Origin: Candidatus Omnitrophota bacterium
Lineage (GTDB): Bacteria > Omnitrophota > Gorgyraeia > Ghiorseimicrobiales > Ghiorseimicrobiaceae
Assembly (NCBI GenBank): GCA_030681595.1
Contig: JAUXSB010000061.1
Span: forward strand, 69,392 to 133,391
Direction of reading: 5' to 3'
DNA: 64,000 bases
The first letter of the stretch is position 1, and each line of letters opens with the position of its first letter. Under the pieces are notes generated by a model. It saw only the letters and a program-made list of their open reading frames with translations. It made no database searches and was not told where the DNA came from. This document shows, one piece after another, positions 2,707 through 21,702 of the stretch. A program made the translations under genes and the position numbers.

Positions 2707-2755
2707 TTAGTTTTTATTTTTACTTTTTAATATTTCATTTTTGGTTTTTTTCTAC
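2707..2755. repeat. direct repeat copy 2 (about 49 bp, AT-rich)
   Basis: Near-identical copy of the 2562-2610 repeat. It overlaps the stop codon and the last codons of the upstream histidine kinase. Confidence 0.7.
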
Positions 2756-4942
2756 CGCCACCGGCAGCTCCATCCTAAAACTTGTCCCTTCACCGTATTG
2801 GGAATGAATGGATATTTTACCCTTATGGAATTCAATGATGCGTTTGATCACGTGTAAGCCTAAACCTGTGCCTTTGCCGCTTGATGCCTTGGTGGTAAAA
2901 AAAGGCACAAAGAGCTTGGTAAGGTTTTCTTCTCGGACGCCCATGCCGTTGTCTGAGACTTCAAAGATTAAATGCTTTGCGTCCGGTTTAAGATGAGCGG
3001 CAATAGTTATGCGCGGTTTATATCCGGCGCCGTTTAAATCCATACGCTCCATTAAGGCGTCATAGCCGTTATCAATAAGGTTTAGGCAGACCTCACCTAA
3101 CTGCGCTACATCCCCCCAGATTTTAGGCAGAGTATCGGGGATATCCATCTTTAACTCAAACTCGTCAAACTTCAGCTTATATTGCAGGACTCCGAGAGCG
3201 ACATCCAAGGGCTCTCTTATGCTGATAGGTTTAAACTCTTCTGCAGAGAAACGGCTTAGCCTTCTTATTGAGGCAACGGTTTGTCCGCCGCGGGTTGCTT
3301 CTTCGGAGATCTTGCGCAGAGCGGCGATAGACTGAGTAAGCAGGTTTTTTAATTCATCTGCCGATGAATTCTCTTTTGCCTCCAACATCGCCTCGATAAG
3401 GTCTGCGGTTCCGGCTAAGTTATTTACCGCTTGAAATCTATTGTTTATCTGATGCCCCATCATTGAGGCCATAGTGCCTAGAGAGGCAAGATTTACCGAA
3501 TGAAACATTATCGCCTGACGCTCTTTTTCGCTTTCGCTAAATATCGCGTTCTCAATGGCGAGGGTTGCGTGATTGGAAAGAACAGTCAATACCTCGATAT
3601 CTTCCTGCGTATATCCCCGTTCAGAACGTTTTTCGCCCAAGACAAGAAAACCGATCAACTTATCCGCGCGGATTGCCGGAATAATCAACTGCGCCTTTAG
3701 CGATTCAAATGTTTTTTTAAGCTCAAATACTTCTAATAAATCATTGCGCTGGGAATGGAATTTCAGCTCGTCAAGATTTAAGGCAATGCCAGCCTGTTGG
3801 CTAAGCCTTTTAATCAGGGCAGAGTCAGAAGGGAATTCTTTTGTTAAATCCGGGTTTTTAAACGGCGGCTGCCAGAATGATTTTAAGATAAATGCTTTTT
3901 TTTCTTCGTCAAGAAGGTAAATCGCGGCTAATTTTATCTGCATGATGCGGATTAGGTTGTGGGTAATGGCACGCAAAAGCGCATACAGACGGTTAAAGCG
4001 CAGGATAGTCTGGGAGACACGGCGTAATGCTTCATGACGGGCGCGTTCTTCTCTTAAAAGTGCCGCCTCAGCGCGGCTCTTTAAGCCCATAAAGATAAAT
4101 GGGCCAATCCCGGAAAGAAGCATCCCGATAACTAAGATAACCAACCACCATCTCTCACCGAGCCCACCTACCAGATAAGACTTGGCTAGCTTTACAATCA
4201 AAAAAGGAATCCCTAAGACAAAAGCATAGACAAAGGTGAAGATGGCGGTGCGGGCCGCGGCAATTTTTATATCCATAAGGCGATGGCGAACAATAAGATA
4301 GGCAGTGATAAGACTAAAGAGAGAAACAAGAAGATTGTCTATCGGAGGAGATGCTACGCTAAGAACTAACGATAAATACATGCTCGCCGCTACAAATATT
4401 ACCAGCAAGGATATCATCATGTATTTCAATCGTTCTCTTTGATATGGAGATTTTTCTGTTATAAATGTTTTGGTTAAAATATAGAATGGATAAAGGCCAC
4501 AAAATGCAAAATACGATAGGTAGGGATACCAGAGAGGGCCCGGCACAGCAATATAGCGAAAAGGAAATTTATGTTGTACATCTAAAATAAAAAAATTTCG
4601 TAAACTTGGAAGGAGATTTAAAATTAAAAATATAATTGATAAAGCATAAAGCGTTGTAAGTATTTTTTTTCGTTTTTGTTCGGCGACGAGTAAGCTGACA
4701 TGTAAAAAAAGCGTCGGCGCAAATGCGGCACCAGTATAAAGAAACCTATCCCAAAACAAAGCAGACTCTCTGGTTGCAACCGAACTTTCTCTAAAGCAAC
4801 CAAATACCCAAAGGAATATACTAATGCTTAATAAACAAAAGACTCTATTTAAGGTTCTTTGCCTGTTTTGAAAATATACAAATATCCCTAATAATAAAGT
4901 TGAGGTAGAACCAAATAAAGATGTAACTGCGTATATGTTCAT
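2735..4942 (-). CDS. sensor histidine kinase: N-terminal 7TM membrane domain, GAF domain, HisKA, HATPase_c
   Basis: 735 aa. About 290 aa of multi-span hydrophobic N-terminus, then a GAF-like region, an H-box (MMGHQINNRF) and an ATPase domain with G-boxes (DNGMGV, GTGLGL). Confidence 0.85.
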   Translation of the reverse strand: MNIYAVTSLFGSTSTLLLGIFVYFQNRQRTLNRVFCLLSISIFLWVFGCFRESSVATRESALFWDRFLYTGAAFAPTLFLHVSLLVAEQKRKKILTTLYALSIIFLILNLLPSLRNFFILDVQHKFPFRYIAVPGPLWYPYLSYFAFCGLYPFYILTKTFITEKSPYQRERLKYMMISLLVIFVAASMYLSLVLSVASPPIDNLLVSLFSLITAYLIVRHRLMDIKIAAARTAIFTFVYAFVLGIPFLIVKLAKSYLVGGLGERWWLVILVIGMLLSGIGPFIFMGLKSRAEAALLREERARHEALRRVSQTILRFNRLYALLRAITHNLIRIMQIKLAAIYLLDEEKKAFILKSFWQPPFKNPDLTKEFPSDSALIKRLSQQAGIALNLDELKFHSQRNDLLEVFELKKTFESLKAQLIIPAIRADKLIGFLVLGEKRSERGYTQEDIEVLTVLSNHATLAIENAIFSESEKERQAIMFHSVNLASLGTMASMMGHQINNRFQAVNNLAGTADLIEAMLEAKENSSADELKNLLTQSIAALRKISEEATRGGQTVASIRRLSRFSAEEFKPISIREPLDVALGVLQYKLKFDEFELKMDIPDTLPKIWGDVAQLGEVCLNLIDNGYDALMERMDLNGAGYKPRITIAAHLKPDAKHLIFEVSDNGMGVREENLTKLFVPFFTTKASSGKGTGLGLHVIKRIIEFHKGKISIHSQYGEGTSFRMELPVAVEKNQK

Positions 4943-4946
4943 TTAA

Positions 4947-6035
4947 CTATAGCCCATTGGTTAAATAATTTTTTGCCTCATCAACTAATTCGTTTATCAG
5001 CTCTTTTACCGAAACTATTTTTTTGATCCGATACGCGTTTGCCCCGCACATCGCATAACCTTCCTCAAGGTTACCGCGGTAGGCATTTACCAAAGCCTTA
5101 GCAATACAGTAATTTACTATCAAAGGGTTACAAGACTTTAAACACCTATAGGGACAGGTAAACTTCATTTTCTCGCCTGCCTCTATCCTTTCCACAAATT
5201 TATTCCTGATTACCCTCGCCGGCATGCCAACCGGGCTCATAATTACAGCGATATCGTCTTGGGTACATTTTAAGTAAGCGTCTTTATACGCTTGCGAAAC
5301 GCTGCATTCATGGGTACATACAAACCTTGTCGCCATCTGGACCCCGCTTGCTCCAAGTTTTAAAATTCTGGCTATATCTTTTCCCGAGAATATTCCGCCG
5401 CCTGCTATTATAGGAATTTTCTTATTCGCGCTTGATTCGAATTCTTTAACAGCTAAAACTACATCAACCAATAAATTATCTATGGATGGAAATTCGGAAC
5501 TTAAAATCTCTCCAAACTTAAAACCGATATGCCCGCCTGCAAGAGGGCCCTCTAAAACTAAGGCATCGGGCAGGCGGTTGTATCTTCGCAGCCAAGTTTT
5601 ACAAATTAGCTCTGCCGCCCTGCCGGAAGAGACGATAGGAATAAGTTTTGTTTTAGGGCTACCGCTTAAGGACGGCAAATGTAACGGCAAGCCTGCGCCG
5701 GAAATTATTGCCGCTACCTCTTCCTCAGCGCAAGTCTTGGCTAATTCGTCATAATTACTCAAAACGCACATTATATTTACGCCAAAAGGCCTGCTTGTAA
5801 GCTGCTTGGTTTCTCGAATCATGTCCTTTAAAGCCAAACGCGACCTTTCCTCGTATTTTAAATCCTGCCACCCTTCTTCGCCTAAGCCGACACTAGCAAT
5901 AACACCAAAAGCCCCTTCGTTAGATACTGCGGCGGCAAGCGTTGCCGTCGAAACCCTGACTCCCATCCCGCCCTGAATTATAGGGGGATTTATGACGAGG
6001 TCTCCGATAATTAAATCCGGTAATTTTTTATCCAT
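4947..6035 (-). CDS. NMO/FabK-like FMN-dependent oxidoreductase (nitronate monooxygenase / enoyl-ACP reductase II family)
   Basis: IIQGGMGVRVSTATLAAAVSNEGAFGVIA is typical of the 2-nitropropane dioxygenase/FabK TIM-barrel family. The start is placed at MDKK (6035), which abuts the ALDH stop; the ORF could extend to 6089. Confidence 0.7.
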   Translation of the reverse strand: MDKKLPDLIIGDLVINPPIIQGGMGVRVSTATLAAAVSNEGAFGVIASVGLGEEGWQDLKYEERSRLALKDMIRETKQLTSRPFGVNIMCVLSNYDELAKTCAEEEVAAIISGAGLPLHLPSLSGSPKTKLIPIVSSGRAAELICKTWLRRYNRLPDALVLEGPLAGGHIGFKFGEILSSEFPSIDNLLVDVVLAVKEFESSANKKIPIIAGGGIFSGKDIARILKLGASGVQMATRFVCTHECSVSQAYKDAYLKCTQDDIAVIMSPVGMPARVIRNKFVERIEAGEKMKFTCPYRCLKSCNPLIVNYCIAKALVNAYRGNLEEGYAMCGANAYRIKKIVSVKELINELVDEAKNYLTNGL

Positions 6036-6037
6036 CT

Positions 6038-7627
6038 CTATCCTTGTAATGCTCTGCTTATGCCCTGTAAATGAGAAGTCTTTTGCCAAAAATAATTCAT
6101 TTCACCATACGGCCCACCGCTTCTTCTTGTGCCGCCATGCGTTGAAATATAATAGGAGAAACCGGCATGCCTTAAATTAATCCTTAATATGCCGCAATTG
6201 TCTAATTCTTTAGCAAATTTACGCATAAACTTTCCTGATTTAATCCATAGAGAAGTTCTTAGGCCGTAATTATGCACATTCACCGCTTCTACCATTTTGT
6301 CAAAAATTTCTTCATCACTGCCGGTAACCTGCACCAGAGGAAGCAGAGGGAAAAAAATTTCTTCATTTATGCAGAGCATCGATTTTGCTTTGTCAATATC
6401 GTCTATTTCTATCAATGTCGGTTCTATATATGAACCTTTTTCATCGGGCTTGCCGGAATAATCTATTCTTTTTCCCCCGCAAATTAAATTAGCTCCTTTA
6501 GATAAAGCATCTTTCAAAAACATAAAAAACTCTTCAATTTTTGAAACCGGGCTTAATAACGTATCAACATCGGAAGGCAAGCCCACTTTCAGGTTTTTTA
6601 CCTTTTTGGTAAATTTATTTTTAAACTCATCAAATACATCTTTATGAATTAAGGCGATCTTAGGCATCATACAGACTTGTGTCGAGCCTAAAAAACCATC
6701 AATTAATGATTCCGCTGCTTTTTCTAAATCGGCGTCTTTCCAGACTAATTGAAAATCGTTGCCAGAAAGTTCCAATATCGGTTTTTTATTTGCGATATAT
6801 ATACGAGCGCCCTCTTCTATCCCTTTTTTACTGTCTCCAAACAATATAATGTCATTGATATAACGGCTATCTAACCATTCGTCCATTAATCGTTTTGAGT
6901 TCCCGATGACGATATTTAATAAACCCGGGGGTGTTTGATATTTTTCCAAGACTTTATTTATTACTTCCTTCCAGAGAAAAATAGTCGAAATTGGTGTTTT
7001 TAACGGCGGCTTTACAATTAAAGCATTGCCTGTCAGGTAAACCAAAATTGCGTTAAACGAATTGCTTGCCGCAGCACTCCGCGGAGGGCTGATGCAAACA
7101 ACGCCGTCAGGCCTCCTTGCGTTATACAAAATTTCATTGGAATACTTGCCAATCTCCTTTTGCACCATCGAATAGTAATAATTTGTTGTTTCGGGGCTAG
7201 AGCCAACACGCATCCCTTCGAATTCCCATTCGCCGAGCTTTTTAGGATGCCCCTCTATCATTAAAAGCTTTAAAAACTCTTCTTTATACCCAAGAAGAGA
7301 TTTATGAATATCGAGCAAAATATTTTTACGAACGGAGAGCGGAAATTTACGGAATTCTTTAAAAGCGCGATAAGCAGACTCCATTGCTTTTAAATTTGTA
7401 TCATCTTTACCTATACAATATTTAGCATATATATACTCATCGGCTTCTTTTGCCTCTTCCGGAATTCTGCCCGTTTTAATCCCTGTTAAGATCCTGAATG
7501 TTGTTTTAAAATCGGTTATTTGTTTGTCGATATACGGAAAATATTCGTATATTTTCGTATCGAAATCTTCGCCGTTAATCAAAAGAGTAAACTTTTTCAT
7601 CGTCTTTATCCCGATTAAACTATCCAA
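6038..7627 (-). CDS. aldehyde dehydrogenase family protein
   Basis: 529 aa with the ALDH catalytic region (ELSGNDFQLV, GSTQVCMMPK with the catalytic Cys). Confidence 0.8.
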   Translation of the reverse strand: MDSLIGIKTMKKFTLLINGEDFDTKIYEYFPYIDKQITDFKTTFRILTGIKTGRIPEEAKEADEYIYAKYCIGKDDTNLKAMESAYRAFKEFRKFPLSVRKNILLDIHKSLLGYKEEFLKLLMIEGHPKKLGEWEFEGMRVGSSPETTNYYYSMVQKEIGKYSNEILYNARRPDGVVCISPPRSAAASNSFNAILVYLTGNALIVKPPLKTPISTIFLWKEVINKVLEKYQTPPGLLNIVIGNSKRLMDEWLDSRYINDIILFGDSKKGIEEGARIYIANKKPILELSGNDFQLVWKDADLEKAAESLIDGFLGSTQVCMMPKIALIHKDVFDEFKNKFTKKVKNLKVGLPSDVDTLLSPVSKIEEFFMFLKDALSKGANLICGGKRIDYSGKPDEKGSYIEPTLIEIDDIDKAKSMLCINEEIFFPLLPLVQVTGSDEEIFDKMVEAVNVHNYGLRTSLWIKSGKFMRKFAKELDNCGILRINLRHAGFSYYISTHGGTRRSGGPYGEMNYFWQKTSHLQGISRALQG

Positions 7628-7994
7628 TCACTTTCTTAATAACTTGCAGAAATTCTACATTGTCAAAAGGCTTAGATAAATAATCCGCCACTTCTAATTC
7701 CATCCCTTTTTCGTATTTATCTGTGTCGGCATATCCGGTAATTAACACTTCGGGAATACTTTTTTTATTCATCTTTTCAAGGCATGCGCGGATTTCTTTT
7801 ATAGTCTCGATACCGTCTAACTCCGGCATTCGAACATCCGAAATAATTAAATCAAAATCGAAATCTTTAATTTTCCCTATGGCTTCCTTGCCGCTGCGAG
7901 CCACCACCACATTATATCCTTCTTTGCTTAATAATTTTAGCAGGCTTTTGGTAACCAATTCTTCGTCATCAATTACTAAAATATTTTTTGCCAT
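7620..7994 (-). CDS. single-domain response regulator (REC only)
   Basis: 124 aa. ILVIDDE, DLIISDVRMPELDG and YLSKPF are receiver-domain motifs. Confidence 0.85.
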   Translation of the reverse strand: MAKNILVIDDEELVTKSLLKLLSKEGYNVVVARSGKEAIGKIKDFDFDLIISDVRMPELDGIETIKEIRACLEKMNKKSIPEVLITGYADTDKYEKGMELEVADYLSKPFDNVEFLQVIKKVIG

Positions 7995-8009: not shown

Positions 8010-8606
8010 TTATAGTGAGTTATTTATTGCTTTTTTAACTGCTTGCAGCAGCGCTTTTATATCAAACGGTTTTTCTAGATATTCGACAGCGTTTAATTTC
8101 AGCGCCTCTTGGTATATATCTTCATTGACATAGGCGGAAATAAAAATTTCAGGAATTGCCTTTTTATTATTTTTCGCCAAATATTCCCGGATTGCCGCGA
8201 CGGTCTCTACGCCGTTCATGCCCGGCATCTTAAGGTCGGAAATAATCAAATCGTAATTATTATCGCAAATTAAATTAAGCGCAGCCTGCCCGCCAAGTGC
8301 TATAGAAATTTTGTATCCTTCCTTACTAAGCAGCCGTTTTAAAGTCATTAATACCAGCTTGTCATCATCGACTATCAAGATGCGCCGTGTAACTATATTC
8401 GGTTCTTGTCCCTGGTTTTTTGACTGCTCCGGATATCGTTCATTTCTTAAATTGGGGCGTTCTCCATTGCTTGAATCCATGCGGCCAAAACTTTCCTCAT
8501 CGCCTGCCTCAGAGAAAAATGCGCTCGTCGATACCCAAAAAGAAAATGCCTCATTAAATATTTTTAGAGGGTCCATCTTGTGATATATAGTTGCGCTGTT
8601 TCCCAT
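8010..8606 (-). CDS. response regulator with a roughly 70-aa low-complexity N-terminal extension plus REC domain
   Basis: 198 aa. The C-terminal 125 aa form a receiver domain (ILIVDDD, DLIISDLKMPGMNG, YLEKPF). The N-terminus is acidic and low in complexity. Confidence 0.8.
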   Translation of the reverse strand: MGNSATIYHKMDPLKIFNEAFSFWVSTSAFFSEAGDEESFGRMDSSNGERPNLRNERYPEQSKNQGQEPNIVTRRILIVDDDKLVLMTLKRLLSKEGYKISIALGGQAALNLICDNNYDLIISDLKMPGMNGVETVAAIREYLAKNNKKAIPEIFISAYVNEDIYQEALKLNAVEYLEKPFDIKALLQAVKKAINNSL

Positions 8607-8615
8607 GCTAATTCC

Positions 8616-9038
8616 TTAAATGGCAAATTTAATAATATCCCCGACAAACTCACTAGCGAATTTAACCGAATCCTTTGCTTCGTATTCAGTTATATTCCTT
8701 AAGATTCCATATACTGCCTTATGGCGCTTTGAACGCATCTGGTTGAACCTATTAAGGCCGTCTGCGTACTCCTTGCCTAAGAATTTTCTTAGAAATAAAA
8801 TCACCGAAACATGTTTTGCTTCGCCTATTGGCCGAAACCCTTTTGCATGCATAAGCGCGATACCTGCCTGCAATATAGCATTATAGGCAATATTAAATGC
8901 CCAACAGACATCACTATTCAAAAGCGACTGCGCGGTTTTAATATCCGATTTAGCCGCCTCTATGGTAACCTTAATTTCTTCCGGCGTTGCTTTATATTCA
9001 TCTATCAGTTTTTGTCTTTTTAGTTCGTCAAATTTCAT
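8616..9038 (-). CDS. HEPN domain protein (toxin of a HEPN/MNT type-VII-like toxin-antitoxin pair)
   Basis: 140 aa, all-alpha, with an Rx4-6H-like motif (RSKRHKAVY). It overlaps the upstream nucleotidyltransferase gene by 11 nt, the typical HepT/MntA arrangement. Confidence 0.75.
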   Translation of the reverse strand: MKFDELKRQKLIDEYKATPEEIKVTIEAAKSDIKTAQSLLNSDVCWAFNIAYNAILQAGIALMHAKGFRPIGEAKHVSVILFLRKFLGKEYADGLNRFNQMRSKRHKAVYGILRNITEYEAKDSVKFASEFVGDIIKFAI

Positions 9039-9597
9039 CTAAGTTTCCTATCAGGGCTATTTTTTTATTTTTTAGGATATCCATCGCGAAGCCCTTTTTC
9101 CCTTGGACTGCCCGCTTCCATTCTTCAGGACTAAAAGTAACCGTGGATATCTCCCTCTTAAATTTTTGTTCCAAATGAGCGGCTACCCTGCTTAAATCAC
9201 CCAAGTCCACTTTACCGATAACACATATATCAATATCAGAACTGCTTTTTTCCGCATCTTTTGCCACTGAGCCGTAAATAAAGGCGCATTGTATGTTTTG
9301 TAGATTTTTAAAACCTTTGCTTAAGGCCTGGCCTATTGCTTCAGTCTTTAGGATTATGCTTTTTATCTCGCTATAAATCGGGCTTTGCTCATTTAAAGAA
9401 TAGAATTTTATATTTGCCTCTTTTTGAGAAACGAGTATGCCGGCCTTCTCTAATTTCCTAAGGGCGAGTTGAACTGGCCGAAGGGAACTTCCGGTAAGAG
9501 AACAGAGCTGACGCAGGTAAAATCTTCTCTTGGCGTTGGTAACAAATACCGAAAGGATATTCCTTATAGTTTTTGAAAAAAGTATGGATTCTCTCAT
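9028..9597 (-). CDS. minimal nucleotidyltransferase (MNT) with N-terminal winged-HTH (antitoxin partner of the HEPN protein)
   Basis: 189 aa. GSVAKDAEKSSSDIDICVIG is the GS-x9-DxD nucleotidyltransferase signature. The N-terminus looks like an ArsR/winged-helix DNA-binding domain. Confidence 0.8.
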   Translation of the reverse strand: MRESILFSKTIRNILSVFVTNAKRRFYLRQLCSLTGSSLRPVQLALRKLEKAGILVSQKEANIKFYSLNEQSPIYSEIKSIILKTEAIGQALSKGFKNLQNIQCAFIYGSVAKDAEKSSSDIDICVIGKVDLGDLSRVAAHLEQKFKREISTVTFSPEEWKRAVQGKKGFAMDILKNKKIALIGNLDEI

Positions 9598-9664: not shown

Positions 9665-10048
9665 TTATCCCGCTGCCTTCTCATTCAAATTTCTCCTCAC
9701 CACTTCCATAAAATTATGCACGTCGAAAGGCTTATAGATATAGTCGGCTACTTTTAAATTCTGCGCTTCCTTAAAATTTTCTTCGCTGGCATATCCGGTG
9801 ATGAGGATTTCCGGAACCGGAGTTTTTACGATTTCTCTGATCCTCTTTATTGTTTCTATACCGTCCATTTCAGGCATTCTGATATCGGCAATAATAAGGT
9901 CAAAACCAGACTCTTTAATTTTGGCTATTTCTATGGCATCTTTGCCGCTATTGGCAATAGTTACATTGTAGCCATGTTTTTTTAATAAACGTTTTATGCT
10001 GTCGGTAACCAGGTTCTCATCGTCAATTACCAGAATATGCTTATGCAT
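9665..10048 (-). CDS. single-domain response regulator (REC only)
   Basis: 127 aa. ILVIDDE, DLIIADIRMPEMDG and YIYKPF. Confidence 0.85.
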   Translation of the reverse strand: MHKHILVIDDENLVTDSIKRLLKKHGYNVTIANSGKDAIEIAKIKESGFDLIIADIRMPEMDGIETIKRIREIVKTPVPEILITGYASEENFKEAQNLKVADYIYKPFDVHNFMEVVRRNLNEKAAG

Positions 10049-10054
10049 ATAAAA

Positions 10055-12229
10055 TTATACCTTACTTTCGGTTTTTGTTTCTGTTTTTGCCATGGGAAGC
10101 TTTATAGTAAACTTTGAACCTTTGTCTAATTCGGATTCGACGCTGATTGAACCGTTATGTTTTTCGACAATTGCATGCGATATGGAAAGGCCAAGGCCTA
10201 ACCCCTGGCCGACATCCTTTGTGGTAAAGAAAGGGTCGAATATTTTTGTGATTATTTCTTTTGGGATTCCCGCGCCGCCGTCTTTAACTTCAAGAATTAT
10301 TGAGCTGCCGGTTTTAGAAAGCAAGATATCGATATTGCCGCTTTTTTTTGTTTTCCTGATCGCGTCCTTGGCGTTTAAAATAATGTTTGTCAGGACTTGT
10401 TCTAATTCGCCGCGGTTTCCGTTTATCATGAAACTTCCGTCTTTTTTAGCGCTAAACAGTATTTTAACATTTTCCTGCTCTAATTGGTAGGCTAAAAAGG
10501 CGATAACGTTTTCAGCCGCCCTTAACACATCGATACTTGAGACATCGCTTGACTCCAGAGGCTTTCTGGCATAGACCATTAATTTCTGGACGATTGAACG
10601 GCATCTCTTGGTTGCCTCCTCAATTAACTCCAAAACCTCGCGGTCAATTTTAGCTTCAGGCTCATCCATCAGCATCATCTGGACGTTGGTAAGTATGGCG
10701 GTCAGCGGGTTATTTATCTCATGGGCTACGCCTCCGGCAAGCGTACCCACGGTAGCTAATTTCTCCGCCTGCACCAATTGTTTCTGCACCGCCACTAATT
10801 CTTCGGTCCTCTGCCTGACCTGTTCTTCAATATTTTCATAAACAAGGGAGTTGGATATAGCAATCGCGGATTGGTTTTTTAGTGTGGCCAGAAAGTGCAG
10901 GTCTGCCGCTGTGTAGCGCTTAAGGTTGGCTTTTTTGTCTAAATTTATAATCCCTAAAAGCTTTTCATTCAAAACCAAAGGGATAACAAGTGTAGCGGCT
11001 GTGCCCCTAAAATATTCTTCCGCCTCTGCCCGCACTGAACTATATTCCGGGTCTATAGGGACAAAATCGCGGTAGGCTATCTTATTATGCTCCGATAGCC
11101 AGCTTAAGAATTTGTTTCCTTCTAATTCTATGGAATTCTTCCAGTTGGCTAAGAGGTATCTTTTTTTAGCCTCGTTATAGATAAAAATATCGGTGCGCTT
11201 AGGATATAAGGTATCTTTGATGACGTCGTCTATGCGCGCTATCAGCTGGTTAAGCCCTTTTAAATGCACTAAGTCTTCGCTGAATTTACTGGAAATATCT
11301 TCTAAGTTGTATTTTCTCCTCTGGAAAAAGTGGTCTATTTTCGGCTGGGTATAGCGGATATAAACCGTCAAGAGATAAAAAATCCCGCCGCAGAGAAGCG
11401 CTACTTCTGATGCCGGAGCCTTACGGTACCAAGGTTTAAGCCAATAGGCAAAAATGATTATCGGAATAAAAGCACTAGATGATGCCAAAAACCATCCGGC
11501 GGTTTTATGAATTACCGTCTCAATATCAAATGCCTTATGCCGGATAACCGAATATGCCAACATACAGGTAAAAACAAATATGGGTATAAAGCCGAAAGGA
11601 TACAAACGGATCGGCCAAATCTTTGCCACAAAATCAAAAGAAGCGGCAAACCCGACAAGAAAACCGATAAATATTATTAAAACTTGCGTCTTTTTTATGG
11701 GGATCTCTTCGCTCTTATAGGTAAACCAGAGGTTAATCTGGATTGCGATATAAGTTATAGAATAGCATAGGAGAAATAAGAAATTTAAGGGTTTATAGAC
11801 AGGATAGTATCCCCAGAAATATAAACGGGGAGTGCCTATTGATTTATCCGTGGCGATAGCAAGAAAATAAAAAAGATATGCCAAGAAAAACGAAAGAGCC
11901 ACGAAGCCGCGCTGTTTACGCAGAGAGCCGCTTGAGGCTGCAGAAAATAAATAAGCGCTGGGCATAATGTTTATTACGCCGAGAAAGGTGAAATATTTAT
12001 ACCAAAACAGGGCGGTATCCGGATTTGCCGAAAGGTAAACTATACCTGTCCCTAACAGCCACAAACTTAAGCTTGTGCAGAGGAAGAAAAATGCAGCGTT
12101 TTTAATTAATTTTTTTGCCTGAAAAAATATGAAAATGCCGATAGAAAAAATAAGCAGGCTTACCCCTATTACCGGCACAGCGTGAGGGTTAAAATGATAA
12201 CTGGAGAAAGATAATAATTCTTTAAGCAC
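10055..12229 (-). CDS. sensor histidine kinase (paralog of 2735-4942): 7TM N-terminus, GAF, HisKA, HATPase_c
   Basis: 724 aa. H-box AHEINNPLTAI and ATPase G-boxes (DGGAGIP, GQGLGLGL). Its hydrophobic N-terminus shares an architecture with the other histidine kinase. Confidence 0.85.
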   Translation of the reverse strand: MLKELLSFSSYHFNPHAVPVIGVSLLIFSIGIFIFFQAKKLIKNAAFFFLCTSLSLWLLGTGIVYLSANPDTALFWYKYFTFLGVINIMPSAYLFSAASSGSLRKQRGFVALSFFLAYLFYFLAIATDKSIGTPRLYFWGYYPVYKPLNFLFLLCYSITYIAIQINLWFTYKSEEIPIKKTQVLIIFIGFLVGFAASFDFVAKIWPIRLYPFGFIPIFVFTCMLAYSVIRHKAFDIETVIHKTAGWFLASSSAFIPIIIFAYWLKPWYRKAPASEVALLCGGIFYLLTVYIRYTQPKIDHFFQRRKYNLEDISSKFSEDLVHLKGLNQLIARIDDVIKDTLYPKRTDIFIYNEAKKRYLLANWKNSIELEGNKFLSWLSEHNKIAYRDFVPIDPEYSSVRAEAEEYFRGTAATLVIPLVLNEKLLGIINLDKKANLKRYTAADLHFLATLKNQSAIAISNSLVYENIEEQVRQRTEELVAVQKQLVQAEKLATVGTLAGGVAHEINNPLTAILTNVQMMLMDEPEAKIDREVLELIEEATKRCRSIVQKLMVYARKPLESSDVSSIDVLRAAENVIAFLAYQLEQENVKILFSAKKDGSFMINGNRGELEQVLTNIILNAKDAIRKTKKSGNIDILLSKTGSSIILEVKDGGAGIPKEIITKIFDPFFTTKDVGQGLGLGLSISHAIVEKHNGSISVESELDKGSKFTIKLPMAKTETKTESKV

Positions 12230-13793
12230 TAGCCGCAGCTTTTTTTACCCCTTCGAAATCTTCCTGGGTGATTAAACGGTTAGCCCAATAAAAAGGCGCG
12301 AGTGTAAACCCGTGTTTTGCGCCTAACTTCCTGATTTCATCTATTTTTTCCGGCATAATATTACCCCGGCCGTAACTGTAATTCTCAAAACGCCTCTCAA
12401 GCGAAAGAACAATCGCCTCAGCGAAACACCCATAGGAAACATCCGGCGAAGGAAGCCCCATATCCACTCCAGTGTGTATCGGCGTAGGCAGGCGCGCCAG
12501 CCCTCCGGAAAAAACGATAATATCTTTCCTGTTTATAGGCGAATAAGAAATGTTTTTGGGATAGCCTAAATCGCAGATAACCGCCCCCGGCTTAAACCAG
12601 GCTGTATCCAGTATTGCCGCGGCCACACTGGCTGAGGCAATAACTATGTCTGCGTCTCTGACGGCTCTTTTGTTATCCGTCGTAGCCTCAATCCGGGCAT
12701 TGCGTTTTTTTCTTAATTCATCCCGCAGGCGCCGCAAGTGAGACTTAGTCCTTCCGGTTATAATTATTTCTTTTACTCTATCCGTCAATACACGGCTGCA
12801 GGCGCTTCCGATATCACCGGTACCGCCGATTACGGCTACTTTTAAATCTTTTATATCTTTACCTAAAAGCTCTACCGCCTTTTCAATGCCGTCTATTGCC
12901 AAAGCCGCCGTATAGGTATTGCCGGTGGTAATGGGTATATCCACATCTTCGCTTATCTGATGGCCGAGCCTTTCTCCGACTATAGAGGTAAACCCGCCTA
13001 AACTTACGACGCCGACACCGTGCCTCTGGGCAACTCTACAGGCGCGCACAACTTTGGAGTAAACCGCGTGGATGTCCTCATCCAGCATCTCGGGAATAAA
13101 TGTGCATAAGATAAAACATCCGCGGGTAGCTTCGCCTGTTTTAGACTTAAATTCCTGCATCTCGTGCATCGCAAAAGAAGGCGTCATTGTGAACAACTTA
13201 CTCAAAAACTCTCTCGACGGCACCCTAAAGTCCGGCCTGACCATCTTTAAACACTTAACCAGATGGTTATAATTATAAAAATGCCCCAGCACGCCAAAGC
13301 CCGCCAATTTAGCGACTTCTCCCTTGCGAAACTGTGAATATTTTAGAGATATAAGCCTGCTCTCTACGGCAGAAAGTATCGCCTCAAAATTCTTTGTCAG
13401 CAGCTTCTCTATATAGGGCTCGGCGAATTCCCGTATTGCCGGAATACCTACCCTTAGGTAAACATCCACAACCACTTCCGTACCGCTGTGGTTATTATTA
13501 AATTTCCAGTCTCCGTAAAATTCATCCAAATCCCCTTCTATAGCCTTAAAATGAATAGAGCCATCCCTTAAAGTAAGAGTATCTTCTTCTGTCCAGCTTA
13601 TCGGCATGCCATCCACTTGCACCAGCCATTTAGTTTTCATTGTATTATGCTTTCTCTCGATAACTTTGGCCTCTTTTACGGTGGGTATGTAAGCGGGAAA
13701 TTCTTCGACTTGGGTAATGAAACGTATTACATTATCTTTCGGCGCGGGGATAACCCTTGCAAGCCTTATATGCACTAAATCATTTTCCGGCAT
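12222..13793 (-). CDS. SRPBCC (START/polyketide-cyclase-like) domain fused to a long-chain acyl-[ACP] reductase (AAR)-like domain
   Basis: The C-terminal roughly 340 aa align motif-by-motif with cyanobacterial acyl-ACP reductase (LGGFTSI, TTGNTYTA, VIGGTGDIGSACSR, DLGYPKN, CFAEA, YSYGRGNI..EKIDEI, KHGF). The N-terminal roughly 170 aa form an SRPBCC ligand-binding fold. Confidence 0.75.
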   Translation of the reverse strand: MPENDLVHIRLARVIPAPKDNVIRFITQVEEFPAYIPTVKEAKVIERKHNTMKTKWLVQVDGMPISWTEEDTLTLRDGSIHFKAIEGDLDEFYGDWKFNNNHSGTEVVVDVYLRVGIPAIREFAEPYIEKLLTKNFEAILSAVESRLISLKYSQFRKGEVAKLAGFGVLGHFYNYNHLVKCLKMVRPDFRVPSREFLSKLFTMTPSFAMHEMQEFKSKTGEATRGCFILCTFIPEMLDEDIHAVYSKVVRACRVAQRHGVGVVSLGGFTSIVGERLGHQISEDVDIPITTGNTYTAALAIDGIEKAVELLGKDIKDLKVAVIGGTGDIGSACSRVLTDRVKEIIITGRTKSHLRRLRDELRKKRNARIEATTDNKRAVRDADIVIASASVAAAILDTAWFKPGAVICDLGYPKNISYSPINRKDIIVFSGGLARLPTPIHTGVDMGLPSPDVSYGCFAEAIVLSLERRFENYSYGRGNIMPEKIDEIRKLGAKHGFTLAPFYWANRLITQEDFEGVKKAAASA

Positions 13794-14376
13794 TCAACAT
13801 CTCCTTGATCGCGTTCCTGGCCCTAAAAATGCCATCCTGCAAATATATATCGTCAACGATATCCGTAAATTCTTTTAACAAATATATGGGCTTGCCTATC
13901 TTTATAGTTATAGCTCTGAATCTCGGGAATATTACCCCTTTAGGCAGCGCGGCATATGTACCGAAAATCGCGCAAGGCACAATCGGCCTGCCTGTCCTAA
14001 GCGCAAACAAAGCCGCCCCCCTCCTGAATTCGCGAAGGACGCCGTCGTGGCTGCGCGTGCCTTCGGGAAATAAGCCGATATTACGGTTCTCCATAAGCAG
14101 ATTAACCGCCTTTTGGGAAGAATTACCCGTCGGTAGAGTCCCCCCAAAAGCCATAAACCACGAGAGCCACGGCATGTGGTATATATTCCGTAAAGCGATC
14201 CAGTAAATTCTTTTGGGAACAGCCGCGCATACAACCAACGCATCCAGAAAACTGGCATGATTAGCTGCCACAATAAAATTAGTTTTCTCAGGCAGGCTGG
14301 CTAACCCTTCCACTTTAAGCCTAAAAAACAGCCTGAATATAATATTGAGTGTGCCCCGAAAAAGCCAATACCACAT
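13780..14376 (-). CDS. 1-acyl-sn-glycerol-3-phosphate acyltransferase (PlsC/LPLAT family)
   Basis: 198 aa with the HxxxxD motif (NHASFLD) and the FPEGTRS motif. It overlaps the AAR-like gene by 14 nt. Confidence 0.8.
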   Translation of the reverse strand: MWYWLFRGTLNIIFRLFFRLKVEGLASLPEKTNFIVAANHASFLDALVVCAAVPKRIYWIALRNIYHMPWLSWFMAFGGTLPTGNSSQKAVNLLMENRNIGLFPEGTRSHDGVLREFRRGAALFALRTGRPIVPCAIFGTYAALPKGVIFPRFRAITIKIGKPIYLLKEFTDIVDDIYLQDGIFRARNAIKEMLNAGK

Positions 14377-14380
14377 CTGC

Positions 14381-14620
14381 CTAAATCTTTCCTGACTTAT
14401 CTTTGCTGAATTTCCAACTATTTTTCTGATGGTTATGGTTTTCTTTTTTCTCTATCCAGGCGTCAATCGACGATTTTCTAAAGCGCCAGTGTTTGCCGAC
14501 TTTAATTGCCGGAATTTCTCCTGCGCGCGCCCAGACATAAAGCGTCTGCTTAGGTATCTTTAAATAATCGCCTACTTCTTCAATTGTAAGTATTTTTTCT
14601 TCATTCATAGATAACACCAA
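14381..14620 (-). CDS. excisionase-family (HTH_17/MerR-like) DNA-binding protein
   Basis: 79 aa. YLKIPKQTLYVWARAGEIPAIKVGKHWRFRKSSIDAWI is the helix-turn-helix_17 signature. It is a close paralog of the N-terminus of the 25162-25785 protein. Confidence 0.7.
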   Translation of the reverse strand: MVLSMNEEKILTIEEVGDYLKIPKQTLYVWARAGEIPAIKVGKHWRFRKSSIDAWIEKKENHNHQKNSWKFSKDKSGKI

Positions 14621-14711
14621 ACATTAACAACTAACAACTACTAATATTAACCCGCTACAACCATAAAGTCAATACCTTTTCGTAATGGCTTTGACCACGA
14701 GGATAGGGTGT

Positions 14712-16196
14712 TTAACTTCTCCTATCAATTGCTTCTATAAGCTTTCGAAAAATGAAACGATGAAAAGGCAAACAAACATACCAATAGCCTTTACCAGCTA
14801 CGCTTTTCGTATCATAGTAGGCAACTACTGACAGCTTTCTTTTATCTAACGTATCATCAATTTTAAATTCAAGCCAAGCCTTACCCGGAAGTTTCATCTC
14901 TGCGCGCAATAAAAGCCGCCTATCCTCTTTTATATCTTCAATCCGCCAGAAATCTATCACGTCATTAATCTTTAGGTGGGAATAGCTCTTTCTTCCGCGC
15001 ACTGTGCCCACGCCTAATAAAATCCTGTCTAACATGCCTCTTGACTTCCACATCCAGTTATTATAAAACCAGCCCTCCCTGCCGCCGACACGGCAGATTG
15101 ATTTAAACAAAGAGGCGGCGGTTTTTTCTGTAACGATGGAATATTCTTTGACAAAAGCCGTTTTGTTTCCAAGTTCGCTGAGCTTTATGGCTAAGCTATG
15201 CGCCGGGGGATAAGCATCGGACCAACGGGTATGCACCCTATCCTGCTCTTCCCTGGACATTGCCCGGACTATTGCCTCTTTGTATGAAATAGGCTCAAAG
15301 GGTATTAATTTTTTTATAGAGTCGTCTTGGCAGACGACCTCATTTTTTAAACCTTCCATCAGGCATTGAGTAATGGTATGGGGAACGGGTGTCACAAGGC
15401 TGGCAAAATACGCGTAGAAAGAAATATAGGAAAAAGGCGACGCTATAAAAATTGTCTTTTTATTAAGCAAGCCGACTAAAACCTTAAGCATCTCTTCATA
15501 AGTCAGGATATCCTTGCCTCCGATATCAAAAGACCTGCCTAATGTATCCGGCGTTTCTAAAACACCGACGAGATATTTGATTACATCACGGATGGCGATA
15601 GGCTGGCATTTATTTTTCGCCCAGTGAGGAATGAATAAAACCGGCAGTTCTTTTACCAAATGCTGGATAATTTCATAGGAAGCGCTTCCTGAGCCGATAA
15701 TTACCGCCGCCCGAAGGATAGTAACGCCAAGCCTTGCCCTCTTTAATTCTTCCGCTACCTCTATCCGGCTGCGCAAATGCGATGAAAGAGGGTTCCTGAC
15801 ATCGCCAAGCCCGCCCAAATAGATTATTCGCTTCACTTGTTTTTCTTCAGCAGCCTCTCTGACATTTTTTGCCGCTTTTATATCCGCCGCCTCAAATTCT
15901 TTAGGGCCAAGGGATAAAAAATGGATTAAATAATAAATTACCTCTACCCCTTCAAACGCGCGCCTTAAATCTTCTACTTTCAAAGCATTGGCTACAACGA
16001 CCTCGGCCTGGGGCCATAAATTTTTATAAACGTCGGGTTCCCCCCTAACCATCGCCCTGACCTTATAGCCCCTTGCCAATAATTCAGGCACAAGCCTTCC
16101 GCCGATATAGCCGGATGCCCCGGTAACCAAAATTTTACCTACGCCGGAAAGGGGCTGCGATTGCAGCCCGCCAGAAAAAAAATCGCCGCTGTTCAT
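14712..16196 (-). CDS. NAD-dependent epimerase/dehydratase (atypical SDR) fused to DUF2867
   Basis: N-terminal Rossmann motif ILVTGASGYIGGRL. The C-terminal roughly 170 aa match the DUF2867 architecture commonly fused to SDR a5-type enzymes. Confidence 0.7.
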   Translation of the reverse strand: MNSGDFFSGGLQSQPLSGVGKILVTGASGYIGGRLVPELLARGYKVRAMVRGEPDVYKNLWPQAEVVVANALKVEDLRRAFEGVEVIYYLIHFLSLGPKEFEAADIKAAKNVREAAEEKQVKRIIYLGGLGDVRNPLSSHLRSRIEVAEELKRARLGVTILRAAVIIGSGSASYEIIQHLVKELPVLFIPHWAKNKCQPIAIRDVIKYLVGVLETPDTLGRSFDIGGKDILTYEEMLKVLVGLLNKKTIFIASPFSYISFYAYFASLVTPVPHTITQCLMEGLKNEVVCQDDSIKKLIPFEPISYKEAIVRAMSREEQDRVHTRWSDAYPPAHSLAIKLSELGNKTAFVKEYSIVTEKTAASLFKSICRVGGREGWFYNNWMWKSRGMLDRILLGVGTVRGRKSYSHLKINDVIDFWRIEDIKEDRRLLLRAEMKLPGKAWLEFKIDDTLDKRKLSVVAYYDTKSVAGKGYWYVCLPFHRFIFRKLIEAIDRRS

Positions 16197-16218
16197 ATTC
16201 TTATCTGTTCGGGAAAAA

Positions 16219-18336
16219 TCAGGCCTGATAAAATTTACCTTTTTTCAAGGATATTTCCGCAAGGTAACCGCACGGGTTAAAGCGCTCTTTACTTACGTTA
16301 TTTTTTAGCCTTTCTAAATCCGCAATGATTTTTTCAGCGCCTATTGTATCCGCGTAACGCAGAAGCCCGCCGCGAAACGGCGGAAACCCGGTACCCATAA
16401 TCATCCCAATATCTATATCTGAAGGTTCGGAGCAGATTTTTTCCTCTAAACACATCGCCGCTTCGTTTATCATCCGACAGAGCAGGCGTTTTACGATTTC
16501 CTCGTTAGATATCGAGGTGCCACCCTTAGATTTAAGTAAACCATAAACCCCTTTATTGGGAATTTTACCTTTCTTATTGTGCAGGTAAAAACCTTTGCCG
16601 GACTTCTTGCCGAACCATTTCTGGTTGTAAACATCTTTTAGGCTTTGGGCTACTTTCATCCGCGGCCCAAAATGCTCTTCAAGGAGCAGTGCCACCTTAT
16701 AGCCCACGTCCAAGCCAATCTCATCTATCAAAGTAAACGGACCCATAGGCATGCCAAAATTTACGCAGGCATTGTCGATGCGCTCAAAGTCAACGCCGTC
16801 TTCCAAGATAAAACCCGCCTCATCAAGATAAGGAATAAGTATCCTGTTTATCAAAAACCCGCAGGAATCTTTTACTACAATCGGGGTTTTGCCGATTCGC
16901 TTGGAAAATTCAACAAGCGTAGCAACGGCTTCTTCGCTGGTTTCGCGGGTACGGATAATTTCAATTAACGGCATCCGGTGTACCGGGTTAAAAAAGTGCA
17001 TGCCCACTAGGCGCGATTTGTTTTTTACTCCTTCTCCCATTTGCGCGATAGACAGGCATGACGTATTAGAAGCAAATATGGCGTCTGCCCTTGCGACACC
17101 GTCTACTTCACGCCAGACCTTCTTTTTTATCTCCATGTCTTCAATCACCGCCTCAACGATTAAATCGGCATCTTTAAACCCGCTGTAATCGGTCGTCGGG
17201 GAAATAAGCGCCATCGCGAAATCCGCCTGCGCCGGTTTAAGTTTTCTTTTCTTTATCGCGTAATTATAGATTTCTTTTGCCTGCCTTAAGCCGCGGCCCA
17301 GTGCCGCGTAACTTAAATCCTTCATCCTTACCGTTAAACCGTAATAACTAAACAACTGGGCAATGCCGCCGCCCATAACGCCCGCCCCTAAAACAGCGCA
17401 TTTCTTAACTTTTCCGGGAGCGGCCTCTGCCCACTTTGCCTTTTTATATTTTTCCGCCAGATAAAAAACACTGATTAAATTCTTTGAAACCGGGCCTACA
17501 ACTAATTCGCCGAAAACTTTTGCCTCACGGCTAAGCGCCGCCTTAAGTGAAGTACTGTAATTTTTACAAACTACATCCACCGCTGCCAAGGCCGCCGGAT
17601 ACTGCCCGCGCGTGGCACCTAAAACAAATTTCTTGGTTTGATTTTTTAAAACCAGTCGGCCTAAAAAGGACTTATCCAGGAAAATGTTTAACAGCCCTTT
17701 GAGTTTCGGCTGATAAATTTTACGTTTATGGCTATTTCTATTGAGGAATTCTATTGCCTCGGCGGTTAATCTCGCCTGCGGCGCTAAAAAATCTACCAAG
17801 CCGATTTTAAAGGCACCTTGCGCCAAGATGAGTTCGCCTGAAACTATCATTTCTAAGCCCTTACGTAAACCGACGAGGCGCGCAAGGCGTTTGGTTCCGC
17901 CAAAACCAGGGATAATCCCGAGTTTCACCTCGGGTAAGCCTAACCTTACTTTGTCACCAACAGAGGCAATGCGCCAGTCGCACGCCAAAGCCAATTCCAG
18001 CCCCCCGCCTACGCAGGCGCCGTTAATCAAGGCAGCCGTGGGGACACTAATATCTTCCAACAGATTTAATATTTCCTGCCCTGCCATCGCCTTGGCCTGC
18101 CCGTCTAAAGAAGAAGTCATATTCTCAATTTCTTTAATGTCTGCTCCGGCAATAAAAATATCGGGCTTGGCACTCAAGATAAAAATGCCTTTTAAATCTT
18201 TTCTCTCTTTAAGCTGTAAAAGTACCTCTTTAAACTCAAGCATTACCGCGTTCGATAAAACATTAATCTTGGAATCCGGCTGGTCAAATTCAATAAAGGC
18301 AAATTGGTTTTCTATCCTTAATTTAAGGTGCTTCAT
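16219..18336 (-). CDS. fatty-acid oxidation complex alpha subunit (enoyl-CoA hydratase/3-hydroxyacyl-CoA dehydrogenase, FadB/FadJ-like)
   Basis: 705 aa. N-terminal crotonase fold (IAGADIKE, GACVGGGLELALACD), central NAD-binding 3-hydroxyacyl-CoA dehydrogenase region (AVLGAGVMGGGIAQ) and the C-terminal domain. Confidence 0.85.
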   Translation of the reverse strand: MKHLKLRIENQFAFIEFDQPDSKINVLSNAVMLEFKEVLLQLKERKDLKGIFILSAKPDIFIAGADIKEIENMTSSLDGQAKAMAGQEILNLLEDISVPTAALINGACVGGGLELALACDWRIASVGDKVRLGLPEVKLGIIPGFGGTKRLARLVGLRKGLEMIVSGELILAQGAFKIGLVDFLAPQARLTAEAIEFLNRNSHKRKIYQPKLKGLLNIFLDKSFLGRLVLKNQTKKFVLGATRGQYPAALAAVDVVCKNYSTSLKAALSREAKVFGELVVGPVSKNLISVFYLAEKYKKAKWAEAAPGKVKKCAVLGAGVMGGGIAQLFSYYGLTVRMKDLSYAALGRGLRQAKEIYNYAIKKRKLKPAQADFAMALISPTTDYSGFKDADLIVEAVIEDMEIKKKVWREVDGVARADAIFASNTSCLSIAQMGEGVKNKSRLVGMHFFNPVHRMPLIEIIRTRETSEEAVATLVEFSKRIGKTPIVVKDSCGFLINRILIPYLDEAGFILEDGVDFERIDNACVNFGMPMGPFTLIDEIGLDVGYKVALLLEEHFGPRMKVAQSLKDVYNQKWFGKKSGKGFYLHNKKGKIPNKGVYGLLKSKGGTSISNEEIVKRLLCRMINEAAMCLEEKICSEPSDIDIGMIMGTGFPPFRGGLLRYADTIGAEKIIADLERLKNNVSKERFNPCGYLAEISLKKGKFYQA

Positions 18337-18337
18337 T

Positions 18338-19585: not shown

Positions 19586-19598
19586 AATCCCTTCCTTT

Positions 19599-21083: not shown

Positions 21084-21133
21084 TTACTCCTGTTTTTGTG
21101 AATTGCCGCCGGATAAAGCCGGCGGGATAGATT

Positions 21134-21607: not shown

Positions 21608-21702
21608 CGGTTAAATTATATCACTTTCCTTATCTATTTGACAATAAAATATTTAAGCAGTTGGCCTTACCCCGTTGTACACCTCGGAGGTGTGCAACGC
21701 TT

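Follow-up and report, generated by a model that had tools for sequence, protein, structure and literature searches.

A stretch of 64,000 nt from the genome assembly GCA_030681595.1 of a Candidatus Omnitrophota bacterium (contig JAUXSB010000061.1, positions 69,392 to 133,391), hereafter referred to as the window, encodes on its minus strand a 523-aa protein that joins an N-terminal SRPBCC/START lipid-binding domain to a reductase domain with the fold of acyl-(acyl carrier protein) reductase (AAR; acyl carrier protein, ACP). The gene is followed by that of a sensor histidine kinase with a HisKA_7TM domain, and this neighborhood is kept across the phylum. We favor the reading that the fusion is an aldehyde-forming reductase with its own product-holding domain, wired to a two-component circuit, and give this reading as a whole a probability of about 45%. 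The chemistry would be known; what is new is its architecture and a phylum-wide operon with an uncharacterized sensor kinase. All coordinates below are positions in the window.

The SRPBCC-AAR fusion and its predicted chemistry

The fusion and its parts are as follows.

12222..13793, minus strand: SRPBCC-AAR fusion, 523 aa (profile, PDB sequence, model and fold matches)
13347..13772, minus strand: SRPBCC/START lipid-binding domain, aa 8-149 (PF03364, 2d4r)
12303..13298, minus strand: AAR-fold thioester reductase domain, aa 166-497 (TIGR04058, 6jzq, Foldseek)
12807..12827, minus strand: dinucleotide loop GGTGDIG, aa 323-329, equivalent to 162-GATGDIG-168 of AAR
12426..12428, minus strand: codon of Cys456, aligned with the catalytic Cys294 of AAR; codon position verified

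The initial annotation had described the protein as an AAR homolog carrying an N-terminal SRPBCC domain, quoting the motifs LGGFTSI, TTGNTYTA, GGTGDIGSA, GYPKN, CFAEA, YGRGNI and HGF. All of these were present in the translation, and profile and structure comparison bore out both the fusion and the assignment of the C-terminal ~330 aa to the AAR-family thioester reductases and not to shikimate dehydrogenase. Residues 166-497 covered positions 2-335 of the 339 positions of the AAR profile TIGR04058 (E = 1.2e-52, 179.3 bits), and a sequence search of the PDB matched the same domain to Synechococcus elongatus AAR (6jzq, E = 6e-39). An AlphaFold2 model of the fusion, computed from 71 homologs, had two domains (pLDDT 89.3, pTM 0.84). 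Its top PDB fold matches in Foldseek were AAR structures (E = 5e-27, target-normalized TM 0.85-0.87, 31% identity), followed by AAR-like "TAD" domains and then by START proteins for the N-terminal domain.

Pfam alone returned Shikimate_DH, and for the Rossmann core only (aa 312-418), because Pfam has no AAR model. This match, together with the names that some homologs bear in IMG ("predicted amino acid dehydrogenase / RatA"), could be taken to mean that the protein is a shikimate/quinate or amino acid dehydrogenase fused to a RatA-like toxin domain. The shikimate dehydrogenase identity was rejected, since the AAR profile, the PDB sequence match and the fold match span the whole domain; profile and fold cover all three subdomains, and the catalytic Cys and the TTGN motif are conserved. 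We give a non-acyl-reductase of this kind next to no credence. It is worth noting that the AAR score fell well short of the equivalog cutoff of TIGR04058 (449.7 bits), and that the profile of the PigE N-terminal reductase domain scored equally well (175.5 bits), which argues that the fusion is a member of the AAR fold family and not an ortholog of cyanobacterial AAR. A canonical AAR feeding alkane synthesis is likewise hardly conceivable: AAR is indeed the best match by profile, sequence and fold, but the score was 179 versus 449.7 bits, and both architecture and phylum differ. Its usual partner, aldehyde-deformylating oxygenase (ADO), which the initial annotation had already described as absent from the region, had no domain match in the window ORFs of at least 100 aa, nor did wax-ester synthase or alkyl-dihydroxyacetone phosphate (DHAP) synthase, and no ADO was found among the recurrent neighbor clusters of the first 80 loci scanned. 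Both the alkane-type AAR and the non-AAR Rossmann enzyme are effectively excluded.

In the AAR structure, C294 is the catalytic residue, the dinucleotide loop is 162-GATGDIG-168, and the 2'-phosphate pocket consists of R189, R193 and R314 (PMC7089970). Cys456 of the fusion aligned with C294 and was Cys in 70 of the 71 homologs, whereas G323, G326 and G329 of the GGTGDIG loop were invariant (71/71), as was the TTGN motif in the reductase homologs. Two of the three 2'-phosphate arginines were conserved as R348 (= R189) and R476 (= R314). By homology, an acyl chain from acyl-ACP or acyl-coenzyme A (CoA) would move onto Cys456, and a hydride from NADPH, held by the loop at residues 323-329 together with R348 and R476, would then free a long-chain aldehyde. 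That the fusion is a thioester reductase yielding an aldehyde is, in our view, quite likely.

The N-terminal domain (aa 8-149) matched PF03364 (E = 1.5e-16) and also PF10604, and resembled TTHA0849 (2d4r) both by sequence (E = 3e-16) and by fold (target-normalized TM 0.92); these matches bear out the helix-grip fold of the SRPBCC/START superfamily. Residues W56, W67, G87, D88, F92, G94 and W96 were invariant in the 71 sequences, and in the AlphaFold secondary structure a long helix (aa 118-156) runs from this domain into the N terminus of the reductase. The acyl tunnel of AAR exits at the N-terminal segment (M21, Y23, Y26), the site where ADO docks (PMC7089970). Since the SRPBCC domain is joined at this tunnel-exit end, it would most likely take the place of ADO as holder or acceptor of the insoluble aldehyde, which it may then hand over to a following enzyme or to the membrane.

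Among 5.8 billion proteins searched, more than 1,140 matched the fusion. The best 120 had the same two-domain architecture, measured 497-534 aa and were 58-92% identical to it, and the named members among them were all Candidatus Omnitrophota. A scan of GTDB species genomes gave 183 relatives, the closest being that of Omnitrophica bacterium GWA2_41_15 (91%), and 80 loci were fetched, their ORFs called and clustered. These loci are labelled Omnitrophota, PVC-group, "uncultured Planctomycetia/Planctomycetales" or uncultured bacterium, and we read them as one clade. Mean column identity was 71%, with many invariant residues in each domain; both domains appear to be under strong constraint. Furthermore, a library clustered at 50% identity held 410 matches below 1e-30, which included more fusion clusters (28-53% identity), many stand-alone AAR-like proteins of ~350-380 aa, and forms with extra N-terminal domains, namely PilZ-SRPBCC-AAR (P0135, P0137) and HTH_17-PilZ-SRPBCC-AAR (P0133). 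Split forms, in which an SRPBCC gene of ~145 aa is immediately followed by an AAR gene of ~360 aa, occurred in at least 10 metagenome loci. This coexistence of adjacent genes and fusions makes SRPBCC and AAR established partners, fused or adjacent. Literature searches on the fusion, on Omnitrophota acyl-ACP reductase, on COG5322 and on Omnitrophota lipids gave nothing relevant, and no publication describing the fusion was found.

Other AAR-like proteins were met alongside the fusion. A large SRPBCC-less family of ~363 aa, ~40% identical to the reductase domain of the distant fusions, is common in bioreactor and sediment metagenomes (loci L097-L167); its gene contexts, screened with a custom 30-protein library only, had no PlsC and almost no 7TM kinase nearby. 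Extra stand-alone paralogs (320-370 aa, 20-35% identical) lie beside PlsC or the fusion in L022, L023, L026, L033, L035, L041, L043, L046, L049, L052, L057, L058 and L059. At the position of the catalytic Cys they carry Ser (7), Ala (2), Thr (1) or Cys (5), and the arginines and the second Gly of the loop are likewise missing from most. These copies are probably pseudo-enzymes or bind acyl groups without reducing them. Proteins of ~700 aa (L086, at 10001-12112 of that locus; P0188, P0204, P0235, P0240, P0260 and P0269) combine an AAR-like C-terminal half with ~350 N-terminal residues that have no Pfam match, and the gene in L086 sits in a ribosomal-protein/cdaA/glmM context.

A HisKA_7TM sensor kinase as partner of the fusion

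Two sensor kinases and two receiver (REC) proteins are encoded downstream of the fusion.

10055..12229, minus strand: HisKA_7TM-GAF-HisKA-HATPase sensor histidine kinase, 724 aa (domain matches)
9665..10048, minus strand: stand-alone receiver after the kinase (PF00072, E = 6.6e-27)
8010..8606, minus strand: second receiver protein, 198 aa, REC at aa 76-191 (PF00072, E = 1.3e-27)
2735..4942, minus strand: second HisKA_7TM-GAF histidine kinase, a paralog of the first (domain matches)

The most constant partner of the fusion is the downstream 7TM-GAF kinase, followed by the receivers, neither of which the initial annotation had noticed. The GTG start codon of the kinase gene overlaps the reductase stop codon by 8 nt, and such an overlap recurred in related loci (8 nt in 10, 4 nt in 5). 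In 42 of the 44 evaluable Omnitrophota loci, a kinase ortholog lay on the same strand no more than 4.5 kb downstream, and in 24 it was directly adjacent, with E values of 0 to 1e-120 as compared with 1e-30 to 1e-57 for other kinases at the same loci. The REC gene followed the kinase in most loci, and a second kinase plus REC recurred downstream in many. Similarly, the kinase accompanied 9 of 13 evaluable distant SRPBCC-linked loci (L081, L082, L083, L084, L087, L089, L090, L092 and L095), the reductases of which are only 28-38% identical; this tally was compiled by hand over loci with fused or split SRPBCC and AAR. Beside SRPBCC-less AAR-like genes, such a kinase was seen in approximately 1 of 40 loci. 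The difference between these two frequencies argues that the kinase link is specific to the SRPBCC-bearing subfamily.

Conserved gene order points to an operon of the form HTH_17, PlsC, SRPBCC-AAR, 7TM-GAF kinase and receivers, in which the aldehyde, or a lipid derived from it, may be the ligand of the kinase or the variable that it controls. We regard this signaling link as tentative, with odds a little short of even. A literature search for a function of the HisKA_7TM domain gave no paper.

Several other genes are interspersed with or related to these signaling genes. Between the receiver genes lies a toxin-antitoxin pair on the minus strand, consisting of an MNT-like nucleotidyltransferase (9028-9597) and a HEPN protein (8616-9038), which was not at the corresponding position in related loci. 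A gene of the "23S rRNA-intervening sequence protein" family (2177-2554, minus strand; four-helix bundle) is located between the second 7TM kinase and its receiver. At 25162-25785 (minus strand) is a response regulator with an N-terminal HTH_17 and a C-terminal receiver domain, its HTH being of the same type as that at the head of the PlsC-reductase operon.

Acyltransferase, aldehyde dehydrogenase and variable cluster enzymes

Upstream of the fusion, the operon comprises the following features.

13780..14376, minus strand: PlsC/AGPAT-type acyltransferase, 198 aa (PF01553; NHASFLD and FPEGTR motifs)
14381..14620, minus strand: small DNA-binding HTH_17 protein, excisionase/MerR-like (PF12728, E = 3e-20)
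14644..14672, minus strand: promoter-like site TTGACT-17 nt-TAATAT, by consensus match only, in the 104-nt gap upstream of the HTH_17 gene

The two ORFs at 12222-13793 and 13780-14376, which the initial annotation had paired through a 14-nt overlap, were both found, and they do share 14 nt (13780-13793, ATGCCGGAAAATGA). The HTH_17 stop codon lies 4 nt ahead of the PlsC start. Homologs of this HTH_17 protein (cluster c4, 27 members) were found upstream of PlsC or of the fusion in many loci, and in P0133 the domain is itself part of the reductase polypeptide. The promoter-like site is a possible operon start on the strength of its consensus match; in a promoter and terminator scan of the region, the number of such sites was not above that in shuffled controls.

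The 198-aa protein matched PF01553 (E = 1.8e-23) and contains the HX4D (NHASFLD) and FPEGTR motifs. Its best NCBIfam match was the acyltransferase part of acyl-ACP--phospholipid O-acyltransferase, and it scored 78.6 bits against TIGR00530, the cutoff of which is 102.95. Thermotoga maritima PlsC (TmPlsC, 5kym) was matched with E = 1e-19 from its residues 60-215 only; because the alignment begins at residue 60, the protein lacks the N-terminal two-helix membrane motif of TmPlsC. The initial annotation had held that its reading would fall if the pairing were not conserved in related genomes; of 69 evaluable loci, however, 49 had PlsC immediately upstream of the reductase fusion. In a divergent clade of Omnitrophota (44-48% identity) there was no PlsC, its place being taken by a FadL/TodX outer-membrane protein or a protein of ~220 aa, and PlsC was absent from all distant fused or split homologs. 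PlsC would take its substrate from an acyl-thioester pool, and in this clade it probably acylates a glycerolipid acceptor tied to the product; this is the least certain step of the proposed pathway.

The ether-lipid idea of the initial annotation leads to an alternative in which the reductase supplies the alkyl or alkenyl chain of an ether or vinyl-ether glycerolipid, PlsC acylates the remaining hydroxyl, and the kinase only regulates membrane composition. Translational coupling, the 49/69 frequency, an AMP-binding-ACP-acyltransferase gene directly after the fusion in L015 (ElbD-like apart from the reductase), and ACP, FabG and tandem ketoacyl-ACP synthase (KAS) genes flanking the core pair in several loci are all consistent with such a route, and the high phylum-wide conservation suits a core membrane function. 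However, neither an alkyl-DHAP synthase nor a PlsA/Ger-type or other ether-forming enzyme was found in the window or among the recurrent neighbors; PlsC is gone from the divergent clade and the distant homologs while the kinase stays; and the reductase fold is unlike that of ElbD. The ether-lipid route is not the best-supported reading, and we consider it unlikely.

The initial annotation had also listed an SDR-DUF2867 protein, a PaaK/LuxE-like adenylating enzyme, a thioesterase and beta-oxidation genes as context for the fusion. These did not hold up as partners: the SDR-DUF2867, FadB-like, thiolase, AMP-binding and 4HBT genes were dropped because the 80 loci had virtually no counterparts of them next to the fusion, and such neighbors give no pathway evidence. 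The genes concerned form a minus-strand block at 14712-22805 (HTH_3, a 206-aa protein, 4HBT thioesterase, AMP-binding enzyme, thiolase, FadB-like protein and SDR-DUF2867) that, with the electron transfer flavoprotein (ETF) and ETF-QO genes at 35734-39123, resembles a beta-oxidation set; it showed no synteny with the fusion in relatives, L001 (91% identical) included. Likewise, clusters c6, c9, c10 and c11 upstream of PlsC, taken from their sizes as fatty acid synthesis genes, turned out to encode a lipoyl-protein, malate dehydrogenase, dihydrolipoyl dehydrogenase and LplA, and were discarded as unrelated.

On the downstream side, three more genes belong to the cluster.

7620..7994, minus strand: receiver protein, the gene overlapping the aldehyde dehydrogenase gene by 8 nt (PF00072, E = 1.5e-26)
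6038..7627, minus strand: aldehyde dehydrogenase (ALDH), 529 aa (PF00171, E = 1e-58)
4947..6089, minus strand: FabK-like NMO-family flavoprotein (PF03060, E = 2.7e-63; TIGR03151, 184 bits, cutoff 453)

The initial annotation had missed this receiver-coupled ALDH. Orthologs of the ALDH were present in the fusion clusters of L006 and L024. In L083, a single 654-aa REC-Aldedh protein (15464-17428 of that locus) was 43% identical to the window receiver in its REC part and 46% identical to the window ALDH over 516 aa, and the receiver and ALDH genes of the window are the split form of such a fusion. A REC-ALDH protein would be a response regulator whose output is an aldehyde dehydrogenase, which is unusual by itself. 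From gene order, this receiver-coupled enzyme may serve to clear the aldehyde. The FabK-like protein, with orthologs in the clusters of L006, L008 and L009, is a possible enoyl-ACP reductase II.

An ALDH in the cluster could also point to the reverse direction, that is, a salvage route in which long-chain aldehydes that are toxic or come from outside are captured by the SRPBCC domain and oxidized to an acyl-Cys by the AAR domain, which hands the acyl group to ACP or CoA; PlsC would make phospholipid of it, and the kinase would sense aldehyde stress. Thermodynamics favors the conversion of an aldehyde to a thioester by oxidation, as is familiar from CoA-acylating aldehyde dehydrogenases, and salvage would further fit the FadL/TodX transporter directly upstream in PlsC-less loci and the beta-oxidation genes in the window. 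Speaking against it, the characterized AAR-fold enzymes all work reductively, and the dedicated ACP, KAS and FabG neighbors suggest biosynthesis. Moreover, a PigE-like class-III aminotransferase adjoins the reductase in L084, L093, L104 and L112. In PigE, a domain homologous to the reductase turns a thioester into an aldehyde, which is then transaminated (PMC8341465), and such neighbors would imply a forward, aldehyde-forming direction. The window cluster itself has no aminotransferase; as a neighbor this enzyme was seen only in these four distant loci. We hold salvage to be improbable.

Between reductase and kinase, the related loci carry variable insertions. A GMC oxidoreductase containing an Fe-S insert is found in 9 loci and in L081, an HpnA-like SDR in 7 and a B12 radical-SAM enzyme in 4; further insertions encode a FAR-like NAD_binding_4 protein, an alpha-oxoamine synthase of the BioF/Kbl/SPT family together with a formyltransferase-like protein, a fusion of a LuxD-like acyltransferase and a methyltransferase, and an ICMT/PEMT-type methyltransferase. 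An acyl-ACP desaturase gene stands directly upstream in L083. Nearly all of these cluster enzymes handle aldehydes or acyl chains, as would be expected if an aldehyde were the hub metabolite. Read as tailoring enzymes, however, the aminotransferases, methyltransferases, radical-SAM enzymes and GMC oxidoreductases would suit a specialized lipid or fatty-amine natural product made without any signaling, the kinase being a mere local regulator of the cluster; the split SRPBCC and AAR genes of L093, L104 and L112, which have the PigE-like aminotransferase and no kinase, agree with this. Since the core pair is phylum-wide and strongly conserved, unlike typical secondary metabolism, and the kinase is an orthologous and often translationally coupled partner, a natural product of this sort has a low likelihood. 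Of related interest, the window encodes far from the operon (59345-60034, minus strand) an ICMT/PEMT/DUF1295-type membrane methyltransferase or reductase-like protein, relatives of which (cluster c28) lie beside the reductase in several loci.

GAF- or REC-HD-GYP genes also occur in the clusters and, with the PilZ fusions, make a connection to cyclic di-GMP. The favored reading, an aldehyde-forming reductase wired to a two-component circuit, could be extended into an unrecognized lipid-aldehyde signaling circuit ancestral to Omnitrophota. An aldehyde that partitions into the membrane, or a derivative specific to the clade (such as an alcohol, amine, ester or glycerolipid), would be sensed in the membrane by the seven-helix kinase, phosphotransfer would activate the receiver-coupled ALDH that clears it, and the cyclic di-GMP parts (PilZ fusions, HD-GYP) would link the circuit to cell-envelope behavior. 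We regard this full extension as rather doubtful.

A number of observations weigh against the favored reading. On the side of the chemistry, the score below the AAR equivalog cutoff comes together with a third 2'-phosphate arginine that is not conserved, the R193 position being N, H or T in the homologs, so substrate or cofactor preference may differ from that of AAR. As for the circuit, four distant SRPBCC and AAR loci have no kinase, and the adjacency could reflect regulation of the operon instead of sensing of its product. For a signal synthase, 58-70% identity across the phylum is unusually high; a housekeeping lipid enzyme would be the better fit. A pure signaling model also leaves PlsC without an explained role. 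Lastly, every functional step of the proposed pathway is one that we infer from sequence.

The rest of the window holds ETF/ETF-QO, ATP synthase, complex I and pyrimidine genes and transporters. Two further minus-strand genes drew attention: a P-type cation ATPase of 1089 aa with an N-terminal PTS EIIA-2 domain, an unusual regulatory fusion (28384-31653), and a PEP-CTERM-anchored protein, which implies an exosortase system in the genome (23611-24393).

Significance and comparison with known systems

AAR-fold reductases have so far been met in cyanobacterial alkane synthesis and in a few natural-product pathways. Here, AAR chemistry is predicted in a protein with a built-in lipid-holding domain, kept across an uncultured phylum and tied to a 7TM kinase without a known ligand. 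If an unusual or ether-type lipid were made, this would be another route to bacterial non-ester lipids and possibly a source of environmental lipid biomarkers. Should the signaling circuit prove true, it would represent a new class of lipid signal/receptor pair with a phosphorylation-controlled aldehyde dehydrogenase, and would give the HisKA_7TM sensor domain its first function. In addition, a reductase with its own product acceptor may ease the product-release bottleneck of AAR in the engineering of fatty aldehydes, alcohols and alkanes.

The known AAR-fold relatives of the fusion are AAR, PigE and the TAD domain of nonribosomal peptide synthetases (NRPS). With cyanobacterial AAR (EC 1.2.1.80; 6JZQ/6JZU) it shares the three-subdomain fold over ~330 aa, the catalytic Cys, the TTGN motif and the GxTGDIG loop. 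It differs in having SRPBCC where AAR docks ADO, in the lack of an ADO gene, in its non-cyanobacterial origin, and in its operon with PlsC and kinase. The N-terminal thioester-reductase domain of PigE (prodigiosin; NF053554; 4PPM; PMC8341465) matched with 175 bits over PigE positions 2-355, and the four distant loci with the aminotransferase as a neighbor gene resemble a split PigE; in contrast, an aminotransferase is missing from the window operon, SRPBCC stands in place of the transaminase as fusion partner, and there is no pigment-cluster context. The putative TAD of NRPS/polyketide synthases, as in carmabin CarI (9E4S; bioRxiv 10.1101/2024.10.28.620694), has an AAR-like fold with an invariant Cys by the nicotinamide. 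These domains were the second-best group of fold matches (E ~4e-18) at only 18-19% identity, but they are NAD-specific, reside inside megasynthases and have another N-terminal subdomain.

Among systems of other enzyme families, ElbD of myxobacterial ether-lipid synthesis likewise combines a fatty-acyl reductase with an AGPAT-type acyltransferase. ElbD is one polypeptide of adenylation, ACP, SDR reductase (NAD_binding_4) and AGPAT domains, whereas here reductase and acyltransferase are encoded separately, the reductase is of the AAR fold, and neither an adenylation nor an ACP part belongs to the conserved operon. The likeness to ElbD that had been proposed for the pair therefore stands only in part: the AMP-binding-ACP-acyltransferase after the fusion in L015 speaks for it, and the multidomain ElbD architecture was not matched. 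With regard to signaling, RpfF/RpfC/RpfG of the diffusible signal factor system, PhcB/PhcS and CqsA/CqsS offer an analogy, though no claim of membership, in which an acyl-ACP or acyl-CoA enzyme lies beside a kinase with a purely transmembrane sensor. A conserved adjacency of enzyme and multi-transmembrane kinase across divergent lineages was found here as well (42/44 and 9/13 loci), REC-HD-GYP and PilZ parts occur in fusion clusters, and some loci contain an alpha-oxoamine synthase of the CqsA family; the enzyme families are nevertheless unrelated, and conservation of the putative synthase far exceeds that of typical autoinducer synthases. Finally, LuxCDE produces a fatty aldehyde through an acyl-Cys, and LuxD-like genes stand beside the fusion in a few loci, but LuxC is a member of the ALDH superfamily and depends on LuxE, and neither is part of the conserved operon.

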